This document shows, one piece after another, positions 562 to 46,844 of a DNA stretch of 64,000 bases (within the stretch, counting starts at the first letter, position 1; each line of letters opens with the position of its first letter). The DNA comes from an uncultured cyanobacterium (GTDB lineage Bacteria; Cyanobacteriota; Cyanobacteriia; Cyanobacteriales; CAWUOF01), in contig CAVUSO010000001.1 of the NCBI GenBank assembly GCA_963744145.1, positions 2,880,001-2,944,000 on the forward strand. Reading direction: 5' to 3'. Both the position numbers and the translations under genes were made by a program. The notes under the pieces are model-generated. The model made no database searches and was not told the origin of the DNA. It worked only from the letters and a program-made list of their open reading frames with translations.

Positions 562-3500
562 CTACCGTACACCTTGACTGATAAAACCTGCCCAATAAAA
601 AGGAGAATTAAAAATCTGAGTATCTAGCGTCTTGCTTTTGAAGTGATCAATTTGCTTAAGAGATCGATCAAGATTGAGGTAATAAGTGCTAATTTCCTGA
701 TCATCAGGATAAACTTCAACCTGCTCTGTAGTCTGAGCGATTAATAGTTGCACATATTTCCTCATCGCTTTTAAATCAGGTAATAAATCCTTAACAGTTT
801 TGTTGCGTAAATCTTGTTGAGCCAATTGTAATGCTTTAGCTCGATCCTCTCCAGCTTGTCGGTATTGGTAATAAAATAAACAAAAGAAAGTCGTCGCTAG
901 AGCATTTACTGACCAAAGTGTACTAATTACACTTCTTGCACCTGCACATAGGAAACCTGCTGCAAGGGTGAGAATATCATCTGTAATATTAGGACTACCT
1001 AAATTAGTTTCGCAACAAGAAAGAAAAATTTCCACTAAGTGGGGCATCCGCCAACCTGGACTCATTAATTGTCCCAAAGTCAGATGACCATCTCCTAATT
1101 GCAAAGCAGATTCTAAAGGACTACTTAAGTTTGAACCTGCATGGTGACTAGAATGTAAGCCCCGTAATTGGGAATTTTTAGTTAATTGACGATAATTGTC
1201 AACCGTAGCTTGTTGCTTTCCTTTCAAACGCTGGGGTTCCGGAATACCTAAAAATTTAGCAATTTGTTCACACTCATAGGCTGCCATTACCAAATCATTA
1301 GTAGCATCTTCAATCGTGGCATATTTTGAACCAGCTAGAGCAGGATATGGATCTTTTACTTCCCTGTCGTGACAATAGCCCAGGATTTGGGCACTAGGAA
1401 CAACCCGGAGACAAAATAAATCACCAAAATATCCATTTCTGCTGTTTAAGGAGGGATCAACAGGTAAAGCAGCAAAGGGGAGAAGATGTAATAAAATATG
1501 AGGAATCAGAATTAATTCCTCAATTTCTTGTAAACAGTTCTTAATTAGATCATTAAGGCAAAGTTTATTAGCAACCTCTTGCAGTGTTGCTCCCATCTTT
1601 TGGTTCCAGTTATCATTATCCTTGTAGTAGGGAATTAACCATTGATCACGCAGGAATATTTGTAAATCACCATAACCTGCATTTTCGCATTTATGTAACA
1701 GTAAAGATATTTTACTCCCAGATGGTAAAGACATTTGCTCTAACTGATTTCCAGAATTTTGAGAACGACGCAAAACAAAAATATAGGTATGTTCATTGGT
1801 ACTGTAGAAACTCAGTAGAGCAGTTTTGGGGGAATCAACAATTAATTCTTTGAGAGTTTCAAAATTAATCGGAGGGACTTCTAATCTATCCGCCAGAACT
1901 TTATCTTTTTTCCGTATCTCTAACCAGATTTGCTCTTTCTGTTTATACAATTCCTCTAAGATAACTTTAGTTTCCTCAAAGGATTTGTTACTCCGGATTA
2001 ATCTTTTCTCTGTAACAACAGGTTTATTAGCATCATCACTTTGTTGATTGAATTGTTCTTGGTTAATCTGCTTTTGAATAGCTTCGTATTGTTCAAGGTA
2101 TTCTCTAATATCTTCAGGAATATCTCCACCTTGATAGAGATCATTACTATACATTAATTCAACTAAATGGCGAGAACGGGCACGCTCTGTAAGTAAAATT
2201 GCCTCTTGATATAAACCCAAATTGATATAACATTGCAAAGCCTTATTATAGATATCAATAGCAGCTTCAAGAATTTCTTGTCGCCCTTTGTCAGTAGTTG
2301 CCCAAGTGCGAGTTTGTTCAACAGATTCGATCGCAGGTTCATAACCTTCTAGAGCAACTTGCCATTGTCCTAGTTTAAAGGCTAAATTACCCAAATTACG
2401 CCCAGCTCTGTGACAGTCAACAGGGAGAAGTTTAGGCTTAAAATATTCTAAAGCTTGACGATAATAATCAATCGCTTTTTGCTGATTAGTTTCCTTCTCG
2501 ACTCCGATCTCGGCTAGGGTTTGGTAAGCAATACCTAAATTAGTCAGAGTGGAAGAAAGGTCTTTCTCTAAACCTAAGCGGTTTCTGATTTCTGCGGCTT
2601 GGTGATATACGGCGATCGCCTCGCGTAAATTCCTTTCCCCATCCACGCCGATCTGGGCTAGGGTTCCGTAAGCAATACCTAAATTATTCAGAGTGGAAGA
2701 AAGGTCTTTCTCTAAACCTAAGCGGTTTCTGATTTCTGCGGCTTGGTGATATATGGCGATCGCCTCGCGTAAATTCCTTTCCCCATCCACGCCGATCAGG
2801 GCTAGGGTACTGTAAGCAATACCTAAATTATTCAGAGTGGAAGAAAGGTCTTTCTCTAAACCTAAGCGGTTTCTGATTTCTGCGGCTTGGTGATATACGG
2901 CAATCGCCTCGCGTAAATTCCTTTCCCCATCCACGCCGATCTGGGCTAGGATACTGTAAGCAATACCTAAATGAGTCAGAGTGGAAGAAAGGTCTTTATC
3001 TAAACCTAAGCAGTTACTGATTTCTGCGGCTTGGTGATATATGGCGATCGCCTCGCCTAAATTCCTTTCCCCATCCACGCCGATCTGGGCTAGGTTTCGG
3101 TAAGCTACACCTAAATTAGTCAGAGTGTCAGAAAGGTTTTTATCTAAACCTAAGCGGTTACAGATTTCTGCGGCTTGGTGATATATGGCGATCGCCTCGC
3201 CTAAATTCCTTTCCCCATCCACGCCGATCTGGGCTAGGGTTAGGTAAGCATTACCTAAATTAGTCAGAGTGTCAGAAAGGTCTTTCTCTAAACCTAAGCG
3301 GTTTCTGATTTCTGCGGCTTGGTGATATACGGCGATCGCAAATTTAATCTCATATTCTCGACAGCCTAGAGGAGATTGCAAAATAGTAATGCAAACGTCT
3401 CCCAATAATGCCGCGAGAGCATTTTGAGCTGATGGTTCTAAATTAGTTAAAACTGTTGTGAACCGTCCTTCAAAGACAGAAATCAAGGTAGAATCAAAAT

Positions 3501-14614: not shown

Positions 14615-15256
14615 ATGTTACTTCGACCAGACGATCGCACTAAGTTAGACGATACCGATGATACTCTATTTTATTCCTTTCCCCGCTTTGTCACCCATGT
14701 GGATGAGGGATTTATGCAACAATTGACTCAATTATATCGCGATCGACTTAAACCGAATACTCGGATTTTTGATCTAATGAGTAGTTGGGTATCTCATCTT
14801 CCGGAAGAAATAAAATTTGCTCATGTTGAGGGACATGGTTTAAATGAAGAAGAATTAGCTAAAAATCCTCGTTTAAATCATTATTTCGTTCAAAATCTCA
14901 ATCAAAATCCCCAGATTCCTTTACCGGATCAGGATTTTGATGCTGTTATTAATTGTGTTTCGATTCAATATTTACAATATCCGGATGCGATATTTTCGGA
15001 AATTTACCGGATTCTTAAACCAGGTGGAATTGCAATTATTAGTTTTTCCAATCGGATGTTTTACCAAAAAGCGATCGCGATTTGGAGAGATAATTCAGAA
15101 GCTAACCGAGTCGAATTAGTCCAGAACTATTTTAAATCTGTATCAGGATTTAGTCAACCAGAGGTGATTATTCATAAGTCTAATTTTCCGAGTTTTTTAC
15201 AATTTTTAGGGACTGGTGGTGATCCTTTCTATGCGGTCATTGCTACTCGGATGTAA
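14615..15256 (+). CDS. Class I SAM-dependent methyltransferase
   Basis: FYSFPRFVTHVD, DLMSSWVSHLP and LKPGG motifs. Confidence 0.9.
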   Translation: MLLRPDDRTKLDDTDDTLFYSFPRFVTHVDEGFMQQLTQLYRDRLKPNTRIFDLMSSWVSHLPEEIKFAHVEGHGLNEEELAKNPRLNHYFVQNLNQNPQIPLPDQDFDAVINCVSIQYLQYPDAIFSEIYRILKPGGIAIISFSNRMFYQKAIAIWRDNSEANRVELVQNYFKSVSGFSQPEVIIHKSNFPSFLQFLGTGGDPFYAVIATRM

Positions 15257-15281
15257 CCAGAAATTTAATCTGATTATAGCG
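15239..15281 (+). repeat. 43-bp direct repeat, left copy (right copy 16750-16792)
   Basis: ATTGCTACTCGGATGTAACCAGAAATTTAATCTGATTATAGCG is identical at both positions. Confidence 0.95.
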
Positions 15282-16280
15282 CAATCGAGTTCAGTTAACT
15301 GTTGGTTGCATAGATTGAGGGCAAAGCATTTCGGTCATATTATTCTGAGTTTCAGCCATCATTTATGCGCCGAAATGCTTTGCCCCTACAAGGAACTGAA
15401 CTGGATTGGTATTTAATCAGCGATCGCTGGCAGATCAATCGGGTGTAGGGGCGAAGCATTCGGGCGATAATTTATCACTAAAATCGACTAATATTAGATC
15501 CGAATGCTTCGCCCTTCTTCTGCGCCGAGTTCCCAAAAAATTCTTAACTGAATGTATTGTAATATCTAGTTGATCTGTTGGTTGCATAGATTGAGGGCAA
15601 AGCATTTCGGTCATATTATTCTGAGTTTCAGCCATCATTTATGCGCCGAAATGCTTTGCCCCTACAAGAAACTGAACTGGATTGGTATTTAATCAGCGAT
15701 CGCTGGCAGATCAATCGGGTGTAGGGGCGAAGCATTCGGGCGATAATTTATCACTAAAATCGACTAATATTAATCCGAATGCTTCGCCCTTCTTCTGCGC
15801 CGAGCTCCCAAAAAGTTCTTAACTGAATGGATTGTAATATCTAGTTGATCTGTTGGTTGCATAGATTGAGGGCAAAGCATTTCGGTCATATTATTCTGAG
15901 TTTCAGCCATCATTTATGCGCCGAAATGCTTTGCCCCTACAAGAAACTGAACTGGATTGGTATTTAATCAGCGATCGCTGGCAGATCAATCGGGTGTAGG
16001 GGCGAAGCATTCGGGCGATAATTTATCACTAAAATCGACTAATATTAGATCCGAATGCTTCGCCCTTCTTCTGCGCCGAGTTCCCAAAAAATTCTTAACT
16101 GAATGTATTGTAATATCTAGTTGATCTGTTGGTTGCATAGATTGAGGGCAAAGCATTTCGGTCATATTATTCTGAGTTTCAGCCATCATTTATGCGCCGA
16201 AATGCTTTGCCCCTACAAGAAACTGAACTGGATTGGTATTTAATCAGCGATCGCTTGCCGATCAATGGGATGTAGGGGCG
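15282..16280. repeat. Tandem array of ~3.5 units of a 275-276-bp double-hairpin REP/MITE unit
   Basis: Each unit has hairpin A (AGGGCAAAGCATTTCGG..CCGAAATGCTTTGCCCCTAC), a HIP1 site, hairpin B (GTAGGGGCGAAGCATTCGG..CCGAATGCTTCGCCC) and AACTGAA..ATTG end motifs; two identical ORFs 551 bp apart confirm the period. Confidence 0.97.
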
Positions 16281-16307
16281 TTCGCGACAGCGTGCCGTAG
16301 GCATATG

Positions 16308-16749
16308 TTAGATTCTATAGAAGAGAAAAGAGAAGCAACCCGGTTTCACATCCCGATGGACTCGACGTTTCGGTTCTTGATGTAAATAAACCAATGCAGC
16401 ACCGATTTCCTTGACTATTTTCTCTACTTCTTCCTCCCTTAACACCCCTTTCTCTAGACGTTTCCCTAGTGTTTCTGCTCCTAATTCCATTACTAAATAC
16501 AAAAGTTTTATTCCCTTAATTGTAGTTTCCCCCGGTGCAAAACAACGGATTAAATTCGGATGCTCTAAATTTACTGCTGCTATTAATTCTTCTAATTGTT
16601 TTTGCTGATTTTGCTGATCTCCTTCAGGTAAAATTAGCTTGACTGCTACTTCCCGCATCACCCGATCGCCCACTACTTCATCAGCACGGAAAACTGCCCC
16701 ATATCCGCCCACTCCTAAGAGTTTTTTCCGGTAATATTTTCCGTCAATA
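16308..16749 (-). pseudogene. Internally deleted Ser/Thr protein kinase fragment
   Basis: LGVGGYGAVF, VAVK and HRDVKP, then an abrupt jump to FSFLFYRI*; no DFG or C-lobe; 5' end cut at the 43-bp repeat. Confidence 0.85.
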
Positions 16750-16792
16750 ATTGCTACTCGGATGTAACCAGAAATTTAATCTGATTATAGCG
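16750..16792 (+). repeat. 43-bp direct repeat, right copy
   Basis: Identical to 15239-15281. Confidence 0.95.
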
Positions 16793-40630: not shown

Positions 40631-42087
40631 CAGGGTAAGAGCATCTCAATTAGGCTTGACACAAGGATTAAGAAGGATCTAATGTAGACTCAGAGAAACA
40701 AGAAAGGAGGATTTGGAGCATATAATTATTATCCATAGCAGCGCGTTTACTTTTCTGGCGTAAACTGCGTTTGTAAGTTGACTCGCGATTAAGAGCGTTG
40801 AGAGCTAATCGTCTGAGCAGAGAAAAGTTACGAGGACTGTGAAAAGAACGAATGCGACAGCTATCTTCAAAAAAAGTACAATCTAAAGTCCAGTGTGCAG
40901 AATTTTCGATTTCCCAATGTTGACGAATAGCTCGACCTATGAATTCAGCATTGTTGTCTAAAGAAGTAAGATAGTATTGAGTCTCGCAAGTAGTTTTGTT
41001 CCAAAGATGACGGATACGATGAATGATGACAATACTTTTTAAACCTGCCCATAATTTGGGTTGGTAAAGGTCAGGAATGGCCGTAATAGGGAGCACCCAA
41101 ACTTCACGAATTTCCACCCGATGATGCCCTTTCTCAATCCGTTTGTCATGAGTGAAATCAATTCCTGAAAAATTATTTTTCTGTGCAGTTTGGAAGAATT
41201 GTTGTACCTGATTATGTAAAGTTGGATGATTGGCTTTAAGTGTCAGAATATAATCAGCTTTTTTATCAATAATCTTTTGAGCAATTTCGGTTTGGGTCCC
41301 CATCGCATCAATAGTAATAATTGAGCCAGCGATATCAAGTAACTCTAGTAATGCTGGAATAGCTGTAATTTCATTGGATTTATCTTGGACTTTCATTTGT
41401 GCTAAAACTAATCGTTGTTCACTAGCCCACGCACTAATCAAATGTAATGCTGATTGTCCTTGATTTCGGTCATAGGAACCTCTGACAGTCTTCCCATCTA
41501 TGGCAATTACTTCTCCTCCCATTTGAGTAACTAAGGTGTTTACCCAAGCTTGAAAACATTGCTCCAATTGGTTGGGGTTAATACTTTCAAATACTCGACG
41601 AAAGGTATCATCTGAGGGAATACCATTGGGTAATTCTAAAAACTCTTCTAGCCAAATTTGTTTACTAATCCCATAATTCTCAATGTCTTCCCAGCCTTGT
41701 GCTCCAGCTATTATGACCAGAATTGCCATCACTAAAATGTCTATCAATAAGTGTTTTTTTGTTCGGTTTACTCTCGGGTCTTCAACATCTTCAAAATGCT
41801 TGACTAAACTCTGTTGTATTTCCATCAAGTCAGCTACTACTTGGTTTTTCCTAGCAGAATGGGAGTTTTGTTTAGCATTAGCTATATTGATATCGAACCC
41901 TTGAGACATTTGAATATTCCTGGAGATTATGAGTTGGACGGTATAGTTTTTCACCTACCACTCTCTATGCTCTTTTGTCAACTATTTTCTCTACCAGATT
42001 TGTGATGTTCTGATCTCGATGGCTATATTTCATATTTGATGAAAATATTCTGTATCCTCGGTGACAAAATTAGATGCGCTAACCCTG
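40631..42087 (-). mobile_element. Complete ISAs1-family insertion sequence (1457 bp)
   Basis: TIRs CAGGGTAAGAGCATCT / AGATGCGCTAACCCTG; 10-bp TSD GACTACGCTC at 40621-40630 and 42088-42097. Confidence 0.96.
40668..41909 (-). CDS. ISAs1-family DDE transposase
   Basis: DPR, GIPSDDTFRRVF, IDGKT, KSNEITAIP, TIDAMG and RQHWEIEN motifs; frame open to 41954. Confidence 0.96.
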   Translation of the reverse strand: MSQGFDINIANAKQNSHSARKNQVVADLMEIQQSLVKHFEDVEDPRVNRTKKHLLIDILVMAILVIIAGAQGWEDIENYGISKQIWLEEFLELPNGIPSDDTFRRVFESINPNQLEQCFQAWVNTLVTQMGGEVIAIDGKTVRGSYDRNQGQSALHLISAWASEQRLVLAQMKVQDKSNEITAIPALLELLDIAGSIITIDAMGTQTEIAQKIIDKKADYILTLKANHPTLHNQVQQFFQTAQKNNFSGIDFTHDKRIEKGHHRVEIREVWVLPITAIPDLYQPKLWAGLKSIVIIHRIRHLWNKTTCETQYYLTSLDNNAEFIGRAIRQHWEIENSAHWTLDCTFFEDSCRIRSFHSPRNFSLLRRLALNALNRESTYKRSLRQKSKRAAMDNNYMLQILLSCFSESTLDPS

Positions 42088-42290: not shown

Positions 42291-43001
42291 CAGTAATATT
42301 AGATCCGAATGCTTGAGCCCTTCTTCTGTGCCGAGATATCACAAAAAATTCTTAACTGAATGGATTGTAATATCTAGTTGATCTGTTGGTTGCATAGATG
42401 GTGAGGGCAAAGCATTTCGGTAATATTATCCTTCGCTTCAGCAATTATTTATGCGCCGAAATGCTTTGCCCCTACGAGGAACTGAACTGGATTGGTATTT
42501 AATTAGCGATCGCTTACAGATCAATGGGGTGTAGGGGCGAAGCATTCGGGCGATAATTTACCGCTTCAACCAGTAATATTAGATCCGAATGCTTCGCCCT
42601 TCTTCTGCGCCGAAATCCCCAAAAAATTCTTAACTGAATGGATTGTAATATCTAGTTGATCTGTTGGTTGCATAGATGGTGAGGGCAAAGCATTTCGGTA
42701 ATATTATTCTTCGTTTCAGCAATTATTTATGCGCCGAAATGCTTTGCCCCTACGAGGAACTGAACTGGATTGGTATTTAATCAGCGATCGCTTACAGATC
42801 AATGGGGTGTAGGGGCGAAGCATTCGGGCGATAATTTACCGCTTAAACCAGCAATATTAGATCCGAATGCTTCGCCCTTCTTCTGTGCCGAAATCCCCAA
42901 AAACATTATAGTTTAAGCAACTAATGAAATGCTGTACACCCCATTCCTACGTCATCCAATTTTTCAGAAAAATATTGTTGATCTTTTAGAAAAGCTATAT
43001 G

Positions 43002-44510
43002 TTAGAGTCTAGAGAAGAGAAAAGAGATACCCCCACACAACCCCCACACAACAGCACACACAACGCCCCGCACATCAAACTCCCCACCCCCCCAACCCCC
43101 CCACCCACAATCAGGGAGGTGTCCCACAGGAGCAGATATATTAAAAGTGAGGTCAGAGTAGCTCAACCAGCTTCCTCCTTTTTTCCAACCGACTTCATTT
43201 GCTAGTTTAACATAAGTATCGTAATCATAACTATCTAGCTTACCACCCAATTTGAGCCAGATTTTCTTCTGGACTGAAAACCCAAATTTGTCATTAGAAT
43301 GCTTTAACCACAACTGGTCAATGATCCGCAGTTCATTGTTCGGAAAATTACGACAGTTATCTTCTGTTAAGTATCCCTCTTTTTCCCTGTTCATAATTTT
43401 TAACATGACTCGACCAGTTTCTTGATCTGCTTCTTGCCATTTTTTGTCTGATAATAATTGCTCCAGTTTCCTCAAATCAGCTTTAGGTGTAACTAAATTA
43501 ACTTGGGGTGATGGAGGAGAAATTGGTTGAGGAATTGGTTGAGGAGGTTTAACAACAGGTTGAGGAATTGAGGTCGGTTGTAAATTCGCTAAAACCTCCT
43601 GTGCTGATGAAAACCGATCGTCTATCCGATCCTGTAACATCTTATCTAAAACTTTCGCTAAATCTCGATTAACAGAAATCCCTTTTTTCTGTAACCATTC
43701 TTTCCACACCCAGGATAAACTATTGAGATTGAAAATTTCATCCACAACTGAGCCATTTCTTTCCGTTGGTAATACTCCCGTTAATAATCTAATCGCTGTT
43801 ACTGCTAAACTATATAAATCACCAGAAGGGTGAAAACCTCCTCTCATTTGTTCTGGGGGTGCATAACCAGGAGTTCCTACTCCCGTCCCCAATTTAGTCA
43901 TTACTGTCGTACTGACTTGTTTAGATACACCAAAATCAATTAACACCAAATTGCTCACTTGACTATAAATCGCTGCATCGAGGGGGATACTACGACGGAT
44001 AATATTTTCTGGCTTAATATCTCGATGAATTACCGACTTTTTATGAATAAAATCTAAAACAGGTAAGATTTCTAATAGGAAATTTTTCACCTGAGTTTCG
44101 CTCAATCTCCCCGACTGTTGTAATTCGGCTAATAAATTTTGACCGGGAATAAATTCTTGAATTAAATATAATATCCCCTCCTGTTCAAAAAAAGCTAATA
44201 AATCAGGAATTTGGGGGTGTTTCCCTAATTTTTCTAATAAATCTGCTTCTTGTTCAAACAATTGAATACATTTTTGTAAAGCACCACTACCTTGTTGTAC
44301 GGGTAAGAATTGTTTAATCACACATTGAGTATTACGTCGATCTGTATCCACCGCGATCAAAGTTCGACCAAATCCACCCTCACCCAGGGAACGGATCAGA
44401 TGATAGCGATCGCGCAAGAACATTTTTGTCCCACAACCCTGACAAAACTTAGATTGAGGGGGGTTTTCGTAGGAACAATTAGGGTTAAGACATTTAATAA
44501 GGTTACTCAT
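43002..44510 (-). CDS. Ser/Thr protein kinase with N-terminal 4-Cys ribbon and C-terminal GUN4-like domain
   Basis: CLNPNC..CQGCG; GEGGFG, HRDIKPEN, DFG, GTPGY; Pro-rich linker; WQEADQET, IDQLW..SNDKFGFSVQKKIW, GHLP. Confidence 0.93.
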   Translation of the reverse strand: MSNLIKCLNPNCSYENPPQSKFCQGCGTKMFLRDRYHLIRSLGEGGFGRTLIAVDTDRRNTQCVIKQFLPVQQGSGALQKCIQLFEQEADLLEKLGKHPQIPDLLAFFEQEGILYLIQEFIPGQNLLAELQQSGRLSETQVKNFLLEILPVLDFIHKKSVIHRDIKPENIIRRSIPLDAAIYSQVSNLVLIDFGVSKQVSTTVMTKLGTGVGTPGYAPPEQMRGGFHPSGDLYSLAVTAIRLLTGVLPTERNGSVVDEIFNLNSLSWVWKEWLQKKGISVNRDLAKVLDKMLQDRIDDRFSSAQEVLANLQPTSIPQPVVKPPQPIPQPISPPSPQVNLVTPKADLRKLEQLLSDKKWQEADQETGRVMLKIMNREKEGYLTEDNCRNFPNNELRIIDQLWLKHSNDKFGFSVQKKIWLKLGGKLDSYDYDTYVKLANEVGWKKGGSWLSYSDLTFNISAPVGHLPDCGWGGWGGGEFDVRGVVCAVVWGLCGGISFLFSRL

Positions 44511-44609
44511 AATTTTGGAGACCTGATGTGATAAAATCAATTAGGTGGTTCTGATCATATCAGAAAAATTAATGGCGTTGCTGATGATCGGCAGACACCA
44601 AGAGATAAT
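44406..44609 (+). repeat. ~204-bp direct repeat, left copy (right copy 45978-46180)
   Basis: Kinase 5' end plus the upstream intergenic region; both copies start at GCGATCGC. Confidence 0.93.
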
Positions 44610-44660: not shown

Positions 44661-44981
44661 ATGACTCCTCTATTAATGCTTCAACCCTCATCTCTAATCT
44701 CCTCTGGTGTTAAAATGAGGCAATTCGGTAATATTTATTTATTCAGGTTTACCGATGAACTCCAGTTTCGCTTTGAAGAACTTTTAGAAAAGAAAAAAGC
44801 TCATATACTCACTCCTAACGAAGAAGCTGAATATATGGGAATATCAGAACTAGAGCAGATTTTTACCCTAATTAACGCTCAACTTGCAGCCAAAAGCCAA
44901 TGGTGTCCAACTCAACTCGAAGACTTGTACGACGACGAGCCCGATACCTCTGTGAATACTGTCATTCCCCCGAATATCTAA
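44661..44981 (+). CDS. Small protein paired with an HNH nuclease (antitoxin-like)
   Basis: FRFTDELQFRFEELLEKKK..LTPNEEAEY; overlaps the HNH gene. Confidence 0.75.
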   Translation: MTPLLMLQPSSLISSGVKMRQFGNIYLFRFTDELQFRFEELLEKKKAHILTPNEEAEYMGISELEQIFTLINAQLAAKSQWCPTQLEDLYDDEPDTSVNTVIPPNI

Positions 44982-45346
44982 GTCCAGACCGTTTCACAAT
45001 TGACCATATTATGCCTCAATCTTTAGGAGGATCTGACCAACCTGATAATCTTGCTTTGGCTTGTCATCGCTGTAACGAGCGCCGTTATAACTTTACATCA
45101 GGAATTGATCCCCAAACTCAAGCAGAGATCCCTTTGTTTAATCCCCGTCAACAACAGTGGTCTGATCATTTTATTTGGACAAAAGACGGTACAATAATTT
45201 TAGGAAAAACTCCTACAGGTAGGGCTACTGACCATCGCATTGACTTAAATGATAAACGCATTGATGAGCCATCTATTCAAATTGCCCGTCGTTTTTGGAT
45301 AGTAGCAGGTTGGCATCCACCTCAGCTTGATCCGCTTCAAGAATGA
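44900..45346 (+). CDS. HNH endonuclease
   Basis: CEYC..IDHIMP..GG..NLALACHRCN and LFNPR motifs. Confidence 0.93.
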   Translation: MVSNSTRRLVRRRARYLCEYCHSPEYLSPDRFTIDHIMPQSLGGSDQPDNLALACHRCNERRYNFTSGIDPQTQAEIPLFNPRQQQWSDHFIWTKDGTIILGKTPTGRATDHRIDLNDKRIDEPSIQIARRFWIVAGWHPPQLDPLQE

Positions 45347-45363: not shown

Positions 45364-45934
45364 TTAATCAGCGATCGCTTGCAGATCAATCCGGTGTAGG
45401 GGCGAAGCATTCGGGCGATAATTTACCGCTTAAACCAGCAATATTATATCCGAATGCTTCGCCCTTCTTCTGCGCCGAGCTCCCCAAAAATTCTTAACTG
45501 AATGGATTGTAATATCTAGTTGATCTGTTGGTTGCATAGATGGTGAGGGCAAAGCATTTCGGTAATATTATTCCTCGCTTCAGTAATCATTTATGCGCCG
45601 AAATGCTTTGCCCCTACAAGGAACTGAACTGGATTGGTATTTAATCAGCGATCGCTTGCCGATCAATCGGGTGTAGGGGCGAAGCATTCGGGCGATAATT
45701 GAACAATCAAGCCAGCAATATTATACCCGAATGCTTCGCCCTTCTTCTAAAGCCGAGAGTTCCCAAAAAATTCTTAACTGAATGTATTATATAATATTTA
45801 GTTGATCTGTTGGTTGCATAGGTGGCAATGGCAAAGCATTTCGGTCATATTATTCTTCGTTTCAGTCATCATTTATGGGCCGAAATGCTTTGCCCCTACA
45901 AGGAACTGAACTGGATTGGTATTTAATCAGCGAT
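45364..45934. repeat. Third array of the double-hairpin unit (2 units)
   Basis: Hairpin B at ~45396 and 45673; hairpin A at ~45546 and 45830; starts and ends at AATCAGCGAT. Confidence 0.95.
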
Positions 45935-45982
45935 AAACCTACGGCTCGTTGCCGCGATAAGCCTACGGCTCGCTGCCGCGAT
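45935..45982 (+). repeat. Two tandem 24-bp units inserted within a HIP1 site
   Basis: GCGAT[AAACCTACGGCTCGTTGCCGCGAT][AAGCCTACGGCTCGCTGCCGCGAT]CGC. Confidence 0.85.
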
Positions 45983-46180
45983 CGCGCCAGAACATTTTTG
46001 TCCCACAACCCTGACAAAACTTAGATTGAGGGGGGTTTTCGTAGGGACAATTAGGGTTAAGACATTTAATAAGGTTACTCATAATTTTGGAGATATGATG
46101 TGGTAAAATCATTTAGCTACTTTTATCATATCAGAAAAATTAATAGTGTTGCTGATGATCGGCACACACCACGAAATAAT
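45978..46180 (+). repeat. ~204-bp direct repeat, right copy (contains a kinase 5' stub on the minus strand, 45978-46082)
   Basis: Aligns with 44406-44609, with scattered mismatches. Confidence 0.93.
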
Positions 46181-46205: not shown

Positions 46206-46844
46206 ATGACTCAAACTTTCCCGATCGAGCGCAGTTTGAAAACATTCAATCAACTGCAAAGTCAATTCAACCTGCAACGCAGTACAGATGACCAATTCTT
46301 TACTGAATGGTTAAACCCTGACAGCAAACTAACGGAGAAAGAACAACAAGCACTTAATGCTATTCAACAGAAATACTTTTATCAATTATCTGATGGTCAA
46401 TTAGGAGAAGAAACAATTAAATTAATTGTTCTATCCCCATTGCTAGATTTAGCAGGATTTTTTAATCCTCCCTTTCGATTTAAAACGGAAACAACTGTAC
46501 AAATTAGGGTAGAAAGTGATGATGTAACTTATCGAGGACGTATTGATGCGCTGGTGATTCAAGAAAAACTTTGGGTTGTGGTAATAGAATCCAAGGAAAC
46601 CAGCTTTTCCTTAGAACTTGCTTTGCCACAAACATTAGCTTATATGTTAGCTAGTCCTAACCAAGAACAACCCGTTTTTGGGATGGTGACAAATGGGGGA
46701 AGTTTTATTTTTGTCAAGCTGTTAACTCAAGATTTCCCTCAGTATGAATTATCTGATCTATTTTCTCTCCTTCCTCGACGCAATCAGCTTTATAATGTGT
46801 GTCAAATTCTCAAATATTTGGGAAAATGTATTAGCTCTCAATAA
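46206..46844 (+). CDS. Type I restriction HsdR N-terminal-like (PD-(D/E)XK) protein
   Basis: RGRIDALV..VIESK..LPQTLAYM..GMVTNG. Confidence 0.8.
   Translation: MTQTFPIERSLKTFNQLQSQFNLQRSTDDQFFTEWLNPDSKLTEKEQQALNAIQQKYFYQLSDGQLGEETIKLIVLSPLLDLAGFFNPPFRFKTETTVQIRVESDDVTYRGRIDALVIQEKLWVVVIESKETSFSLELALPQTLAYMLASPNQEQPVFGMVTNGGSFIFVKLLTQDFPQYELSDLFSLLPRRNQLYNVCQILKYLGKCISSQ

Follow-up and report, generated by a model that had tools for sequence, protein, structure and literature searches.

The stretch of DNA analysed in this study (64,000 nt, referred to as the window) harbours two minus-strand kinase-related genes, A and B, which end in the same short sequence. The sequence ATATGTTAGATTCTATAGAAGAGAAAAGAGA at positions 16303-16333 was found to match positions 42997-43027 with two mismatches (29/31 nt), and none of 100 dinucleotide shuffles gave two matches of the 31-mer, so the match first noted in a sequence-only reading of the window is real. 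The minus-strand endings are ...CFSFLFYRI* for copy A and ...GGISFLFSRL* for copy B, and the match extends 5 nt beyond the TAA; the two endings and the continuation past the stop codon were therefore as that reading had described. It had also called the two kinase parts clearly different, and they are 30% identical (43/142). The same tandem hairpin repeat of approximately 276 nt was, as claimed, present 3' of both copies and in the same orientation. The features of the gene B locus are as follows.

42291..42903, plus strand: REP-like tandem array B, with 2.2 copies of a 278-nt unit
42903..42996, minus strand: conserved non-coding 3' flank of gene B
42997..43027, minus strand: tail box copy B, a functional gene end, with the gene-orientation sequence TCTCTTTTCTCTTCTCTAGACTCTAACATAT
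43009-43011 (TAG), 43002-43004 (TAA, the stop used) and 42995-42997 (TAG), minus strand: stops of copy B in the three frames, read from the sequence
43028..43112, minus strand: private 85-nt spacer (VR) of gene B, encoding DCGWGGWGGGEFDVRGVVCAVVWGLCGG, predicted to be disordered
43113..43481, minus strand: GUN4 domain of gene B up to GHLP (PF05419, 136.4 bits, residues 354-477)
43590..44405, minus strand: Ser/Thr kinase domain of gene B (PF00069, profile positions 1-258 of 263), complete
43002-44540, minus strand: the whole of gene B, intact, with an N-terminal zinc ribbon (DZR), kinase and GUN4

The GUN4 domain of gene B scored well above the curated PF05419 cut-off (29.2 bits), and its model resembled a solved GUN4 structure (Z 20.8 to 4xkc). 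On the coding strand the spacer of gene B consisted of G 0.60, T 0.32, A 0.05 and C 0.04, with two G7 runs. The 3' flank at 42903..42996 and its junction with the array were common to the loci C1:7458097, 7499048 and 7454125, and 75 nt of this flank were present at locus 416388, which has no array. The array had been described as lying directly beside the tail at both loci; this was the case at locus A, where it abuts the tail, and not at locus B, where it lies 94 nt off, behind the conserved 3' flank. In the assembled contigs of run X1 the kinase part of gene B was identical. The only contig of this run that spanned the spacer had 16 other letters and 27 bases missing, which corresponds to the spacer length of the paralogue C1:7458200, and it is therefore uninformative on variation at gene B.

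A scan of the neighbouring genes in the window gave three proteins. An IS-type transposase (DDE_Tnp_1 plus DDE_Tnp_1_assoc; 40668-41954, minus strand) adjoins array B. Just upstream of gene B are an HNH endonuclease ORF (44661-45346, plus strand), overlapping a small ORF of unknown family, and an HSDR_N-like ORF (46206-46844, plus strand). The features of locus A are listed below.

15239..15281, plus strand: 43-bp direct repeat copy 1, including the stop and 3' end of an upstream methyltransferase-like ORF
15299..16280, plus strand: REP-like tandem array A, with 3.6 copies of a 276-nt unit that contains two long hairpins
16280..16302, minus strand: 23-nt nested element (GCCTACGGCACGCTGTCGCGAAC when read along the gene), which has a TAT in common with the adjoining tail
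16303..16333, minus strand: tail box copy A, a putative orphan relic with two substitutions, its third-frame stop lost at the array junction
16334..16339, minus strand: six bases, GTTGCT in gene orientation, which separate the kinase homology from the tail
16340..16749, minus strand: kinase fragment IDGKYY...HRDVKPG, truncated at both ends
16750..16792, plus strand: second copy of the 43-bp direct repeat, without differences from copy 1

Gene A (16308-16775) matched the Pfam kinase profile only at positions 2-126 of 263, and its frame ends with HRDVKPG plus the tail. It lacked the complete catalytic domain of PF00069 (DFG, activation segment), and no GUN4 match was obtained in it with Pfam. 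The description of both genes as kinase-GUN4 genes was thus correct for gene B and not for gene A, and 16308-16775 should be annotated as a fragment and not as a kinase. In the kinase part of gene A, 109 of 139 positions (78%) agree with the N-lobe of the kinase-GUN4 gene at C1:7455668-7457131, a gene that has a tail of the same type. DNA homology to this paralogue stops at GTGAAACCGG (window 16342/16340), and the GTTGCT that follows is possibly what is left of the last bases of a former spacer. The first codons of the frame, ISGYIRVAI, are non-kinase and correspond to the reverse complement of the 43-bp stretch. This 43-mer is present in exactly two copies in the genome, which bracket a 1468-bp insert (15282-16749) containing the array, the nested element, the tail and the kinase fragment. 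The site of the insert has the methyltransferase-like gene on one side and a PfkB-like gene on the other. In at least 8 other loci the 23-nt element lies within one hairpin of the array unit, as ...gaatgcTAT-GCCT.... The same element (GCCTACGGCACGCTNTCGCGAAC), found at window 16280-16302 and at approximately 17 other places in the genome, is nested in a hairpin arm of REP-like units and resembles a mini-insertion.

These observations suggest that locus A is what remains of a kinase-GUN4 gene, as part of a chimera that was put together or inserted through microhomology. In the order of events that we infer from the sequence, the whole segment after HRDVKPG, as far as the spacer's end, would have been deleted from a kinase-GUN4 gene of a sister sub-family, and the 3' flank of the same gene would have been lost up to the inside of an array. 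The junctions show microhomology of 2-3 nt. The resulting chimera of array, tail and kinase fragment would now form the 1468-bp insert between perfect 43-bp direct repeats.

The 31-mer was not a link peculiar to the two kinase genes of the window. Nine copies within 6 mismatches were detected in the genome, all on the plus strand, and eight of them directly followed a GUN4 domain and a private G/T-rich spacer. A sister box, TCTCTTCTCTCGCGCAAAGACTTGTAAC, was present in 20 copies and was preceded by GUN4 in all 20. For both box types together, 28 of the 29 tails directly follow GUN4, locus A being the sole GUN4-less tail. A box was present at 33 of the 47 GUN4 ends of the genome, and the box-less GUN4 paralogues have similar final peptides, for example LLIQRLVTCKI and SLLVSRLESCGI. 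In an alignment of the eight sub-family copies, conservation ended right after GHLP and resumed at TCTCTTTTC. Two further arrangements were observed. At C1:7458200-7461405 (L064) a single frame of 1066 codons encodes a kinase and four linker-GUN4-spacer-tail modules, whose three internal tails are read in the only stop-free frame and run on into the next module. At C1:7455560-7461674 there are two tandem kinase-GUN4 genes with a kinase part identical at 836/840 positions, GUN4 approximately 92% identical and the spacer unalignable, a mosaic pattern in the sequence that suggests gene conversion or recent duplication.

The length of the spacer was not confined to one class modulo 3 (13/10/10 in this genome, 8/9/10 in other genomes). 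As spacer lengths are free of multiples of three, different genes, including syntenic genes of sister species, read the box in different frames, and the endings obtained are listed below.

31-mer type, first frame: SFLFSRL/SFLFSKL, 5 genes
31-mer type, second frame: LFSLL, 2 genes
31-mer type, third frame: SLFSSLDSNMVP... (SLFSSLDSN...), continuing into a further GUN4 module, 3 genes
Sister box, first frame: ...LFSRKDL, 10 genes
Sister box, second frame: ...SLAQRLVTCKI, 5 genes
Sister box, third frame: ...LFSRAKTCNL, 8 genes

In copy B the stops of the three frames are spaced 7 nt apart. An AlphaFold model of the GUN4 part of gene B had a core with pLDDT above 90, a spacer below 50 (model residues 141-161) and a tail helix at residues 164-171 (means of 77 and 91 for 10-residue blocks). 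This model superposed on solved GUN4 over residues 1-172 (with 4xkc, rmsd 1.7 over 146 aligned residues). A paralogue that uses another frame of the box (...CLFSLL) was also predicted to have a terminal helix, at residues 151-159 (block mean 78). These helices are predictions, and the input alignment mixes tails of different frames and may carry the signal. The box is thus predicted to encode the last, short C-terminal helix, which would complete the GUN4 fold. The GUN4 core would end at GHLP and be followed by the private spacer as a disordered loop and then by the box, which provides one stop codon per frame and is predicted to supply a C-terminal helix as well.

If every base of the box is coding-constrained in some frame, conservation is expected also at the synonymous and post-stop positions of any one gene, and we infer that three-frame use is the cause of the conservation of the box. 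Coding explains this conservation better than an analogy with an IMH or a recombination site. Accordingly, the DNA-level anchor of the sequence-only reading stood in so far as the tail is a discrete conserved block, forming the 3' boundary of a hypervariable stretch in a GUN4 gene family; the analogy with an IMH or a recombination site found no support. The coding account also has evidence against it. Each gene reads only one frame, so that frequent frame changes would be needed, and only two syntenic examples were seen. At locus A both ends of the tail are deletion junctions, which would be an odd coincidence for a tail without any DNA-level property. The anatomy of these gene ends, their frame usage, their conservation and their predicted fold are established here, and the box is, in our assessment, quite probably a conserved end-piece of cyanobacterial GUN4 sensor genes, which closes the private spacer loop and ends the protein in any frame.

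The spacers between GHLP and the box were 30-158 nt long, private to their gene and predicted to form a disordered loop. Their pooled composition was G 0.435, T 0.331, A 0.142 and C 0.093, compared with a genome G content of 0.197, and the strand bias tracked the direction of the gene on both chromosome strands. When 62 spacers were compared, all were private and no resemblance beyond chance was observed. No second copies of the 33 spacers of this genome were found within it, the best non-self matches averaging 30.4 bits versus 29.5 bits for shuffles. Cassette exchange between paralogues was rejected as a source, because no spacer shares sequence with any other place. In 60 spacers the longest run averaged 5.27 nt versus 5.15 in shuffles, and tandem periods of 1-6 were as in shuffles. 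The spacers resemble random strings of biased composition, with no excess of homopolymers or short tandem repeats, and this repeat content of the sequences gives no support to slippage as their sole generator.

In two genera orthologous spacers were 93-97% identical between species, versus 80-96% for the rest of the gene. Continuous hypermutation was rejected for these genera, and frame changes are not continual. In a third genus, the spacers of two syntenic pairs, L037/L041 (41 and 81 nt) and L039/L055 (25 and 62 nt), were wholly different, with flanks of 86-97% identity. Around its unalignable spacers, the L037/L041 pair had flank identities of 91% (1299 nt) and 97% (770 nt). No second copy of the 81-nt L041 spacer was found in five congeneric genomes (its own and four congeners). 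Judged from these alignments, spacer replacement is episodic and has no visible donor. Two tail-like boxes in tandem were observed behind one GUN4 gene at locus L085 (G001:C643, approximately 756-811), and an internal duplication including the GHLP codons was observed at L111, indicating that local duplications occur in this region.

The genome was also examined for known generators of such sequence. No DGR-type reverse transcriptase was present among its three RVT_1 matches, which were a group-II-like reverse transcriptase beside Cas1, a Drt5 (659 bits) and a 183-aa fragment. The first of these lies directly upstream of Cas1 in an RT-associated CRISPR adaptation module (C1:5091611-5093697; L061 2612-4698), and the Drt5 is a separate defence reverse transcriptase (C1:3189607-3191088; L062 2108-3589). 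Neither a DGR template repeat nor a donor copy of any spacer was found in the genome, and the spacers do not have the constant length and adenine-only variation of a DGR, being 30-158 nt long, unalignable and distributed over all three frames. The inverted copies of a recombination site were likewise not observed, as 9/9 copies of the 31-mer are on one strand and there are no alternative cassettes. Ku (PF02735) had no match in the genome, which is 96.3% complete, and this makes it unlikely that the spacers arise by Ku-dependent end joining. At the RNA level, Rfam at E<=1 gave only sub-threshold microRNA-family matches on the array hairpins, a promoter and terminator scan of 42800-43200 found none, and the fold of spacer plus tail was not significant (z -1.2).

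These results bear on an alternative which we regard as unlikely, although it is the one that survives best, namely that the tail is a cis-acting boundary (similar to an IMH, a nuclease site or a recombination site) for template-free rewriting of the spacer, its coding role being secondary. Such a boundary would be consistent with the sharp spacer borders, seen in 8 paralogues and also at the syntenic loci of sister species (flanks of 91%/1299 nt and 97%/770 nt, spacers unalignable), and with the rearrangement junctions on both sides of the tail at locus A. Spacers that are all private (62 of 62), without a second copy in their own genome or in 4 congeners, are also what template-free rewriting would leave, as are their random-looking, biased composition, with no repeat excess over shuffles, and a strand bias that follows gene direction on both chromosome strands. 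On the other side, no DGR-type RT, template or Ku was found in the genome, and no enzyme gene was consistently beside the tails in an unsystematic look. The conservation of spacers between species in two genera, a plausible protein role of the tail in the structural models, and the lack of an Rfam match, terminator or significant RNA fold also speak against this alternative.

The distribution of the box beyond this genome was examined with a GUN4 protein query without spacer and tail, taking the best match per genome in 29 other genomes of the order. In 27/29 of these best homologues GUN4 was followed by a spacer and a box; in the control, the loose box motif was found in 84/580 random 220-nt segments of the same loci. 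Over the 27 loci, which were chosen regardless of their tail, mean identity to gene B was 0.71 for the tail (26 nt), 0.60 for the GUN4 DNA and 0.51 beyond the tail. The tail exceeded the GUN4 DNA in 23 of the 27, so that a tail no more conserved than the GUN4 coding region, which the sequence-only reading had named as evidence against itself, was not what was found.

Of 400 other genomes of the phylum, 18 had the 20-nt core of the 31-mer type with no more than 2 mismatches. The ten core matches with 0-1 mismatch were all behind a G/T-rich spacer, with GHLP within 220 nt in nine; the tenth (L054) has a longer spacer and GHLP was not found. None of the 13 matches with 2 mismatches followed GUN4, and a reversed-pattern control gave 3 matches. 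Other families or genera had an identical core in at least 6 genomes, and in metagenomes all 18 contigs with the exact core (18/18) had GUN4 and a spacer upstream, while a metagenome scan with an exact 27-mer returned 0 loci. The GUN4 domains of these other genomes and contigs were approximately 50-60% identical to gene B at the protein level. The box is a practical marker, as its core locates these GUN4 gene ends across genera. Against an account by coding only, a 20-nt stretch that is exactly identical between families could also owe its conservation to a role at the level of DNA or RNA.

This comparison largely refutes the explanation that there is no special conservation and that the copies match as recent paralogues or through gene conversion, which we consider improbable. 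Within the genome it can draw on the non-coding 3' flank of the sub-family, which is about as conserved as the tail, and on the mosaic tandem genes at 7.455-7.461 Mb (kinase 836/840, GUN4 approximately 92%, spacer unalignable). It does not account for a core found unchanged in other families or genera (at least 6 genomes) and in 18 metagenome contigs, with GUN4 approximately 50-60% identical to gene B, nor for a tail above the GUN4 DNA in 23/27 loci.

The 276-nt unit of the arrays forms two long hairpins (z -5.79) and is present at 265 loci in the genome, and as a repeated extragenic hairpin it is REP-like. The genome also has 17 Y1_Tnp (Y1 transposase) matches. An array within 300 nt was found at 7/33 boxed GUN4 ends, compared with 140/2807 control ORFs (5%). 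The adjacent array expected at other tails was therefore present at 7/33 and absent at 26/33 (none within 300 nt), an outcome that the sequence-only reading had taken as going against it and that largely does so. Three of the seven arrays have one array/3'-flank junction by descent, and so has a fourth locus, which is split by an insertion; an array is on the 3' side of 5/6 sub-family loci. With 7/33 and a shared junction, the adjacency of array and tail is weak, mostly inherited with the 3' flank and not defining. A third REP-like array was observed at 45364-45934, where a 24-nt tandem repeat at its edge ends a 49-codon kinase fragment; this fragment (window 45930-46112) is N-terminal and gene-B-like (MILPHHISKIMSNLIKCLNPNC...). 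The junction between array and kinase fragment (approximately 45930-46030) recurs at C1:5943724, so the arrays seem to be copied with adjoining gene pieces. A further tandem repeat, perhaps a coding one, was seen at 2504-3339, with 5.8 copies of 144 nt and 94% matches.

It is highly improbable that a mobile unit which lands behind kinase genes, be it the REP-like array or a cassette on it, has the tail as its end: the travel of the locus A tail with an array in an insert bracketed by the 43-bp direct repeat, the arrays 3' of 5/6 sub-family loci, the recurrent junction at C1:5943724 and the 17 Y1-transposase matches would fit, but the census contradicts it (28/29 tails directly follow GUN4), arrays are near only 7/33 tails (versus 140/2807 control ORFs), three of them through an inherited junction, nearly all of the 265 array loci have no tail, and the tail is predicted from the models to be part of the GUN4 fold.

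Several known systems resemble the end-piece of the GUN4 genes, among them the DGRs. According to the available text of PMC7517822, cyanobacterial DGRs vary the C-type-lectin ends of kinase proteins, and according to that of PMC7159879, many proteins of multicellular cyanobacteria (of the kinase, protease, TIR and NTPase kinds) have a terminal GUN4 domain, which is thought to be a sensor. In the available parts of these two sources (PMC7159879, PMC7517822) GUN4 appears only as a domain. As in a DGR with its VR and IMH, there is a hypervariable stretch at the 3' end of a sensor domain, in signalling proteins with multiple paralogues, followed by a conserved block of DNA. Unlike a DGR, the box system has no DGR reverse transcriptase, template repeat or IMH* partner, its variation is not confined to adenines, spacer length and frame vary, and the fold is GUN4 and not a C-type lectin. 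A loop next to the ligand pocket that each paralogue has to itself points to a diversification of specificity similar to that of DGRs by other means, as do the occasional replacement of this loop as a whole and a closing box usable in any frame. Whether the box is in addition the fixed 3' border of a template-free process, which replaces the whole GUN4 terminal loop with new G/T-biased sequence, is doubtful. If so, filamentous cyanobacteria would be able to diversify receptor ends by a second route besides DGRs, with the three-frame box as the adaptation that keeps such rewriting safe.

Contingency loci are genes of Neisseria or Haemophilus with phase-variable repeat tracts, in which a change of length alters the downstream frame. 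The GUN4 spacer is similarly a coding tract that is tolerant of, or prone to, changes of length that shift the frame, and as it is nearly A-free it contains few stops. In contrast to contingency loci, a frame change leaves the GUN4 gene on, each frame ends in a similar helix and a stop, and there is no excess of long repeats. The ambush idea concerns off-frame 'hidden' stop codons in the two unused frames just past the coding end; the box also places stops in the off frames, but each of its three frames serves as the real one in some of the genes. The arrays resemble REP/BIME hairpin repeats with Y1 (RAYT/IS200-like) transposases in their two-hairpin units of 276 nt and their 265 loci, and Y1 genes are present in the genome. 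Unlike classical REPs, the units are far longer and in tandem, and they are neighbours of the tail and not part of it. With canonical GUN4 / Ycf53 (PDB 1Y6I, 4XKC, 1Z3X) these gene ends share the predicted fold, the tail helix being within the superposed range up to the ends of the solved chains. They differ in that the sequence alignment to the solved structures stops at GHLP, and in that the paralogues reach the last helix through a private G/T-coded loop of 10-50 residues and encode this helix in a box readable in three frames.
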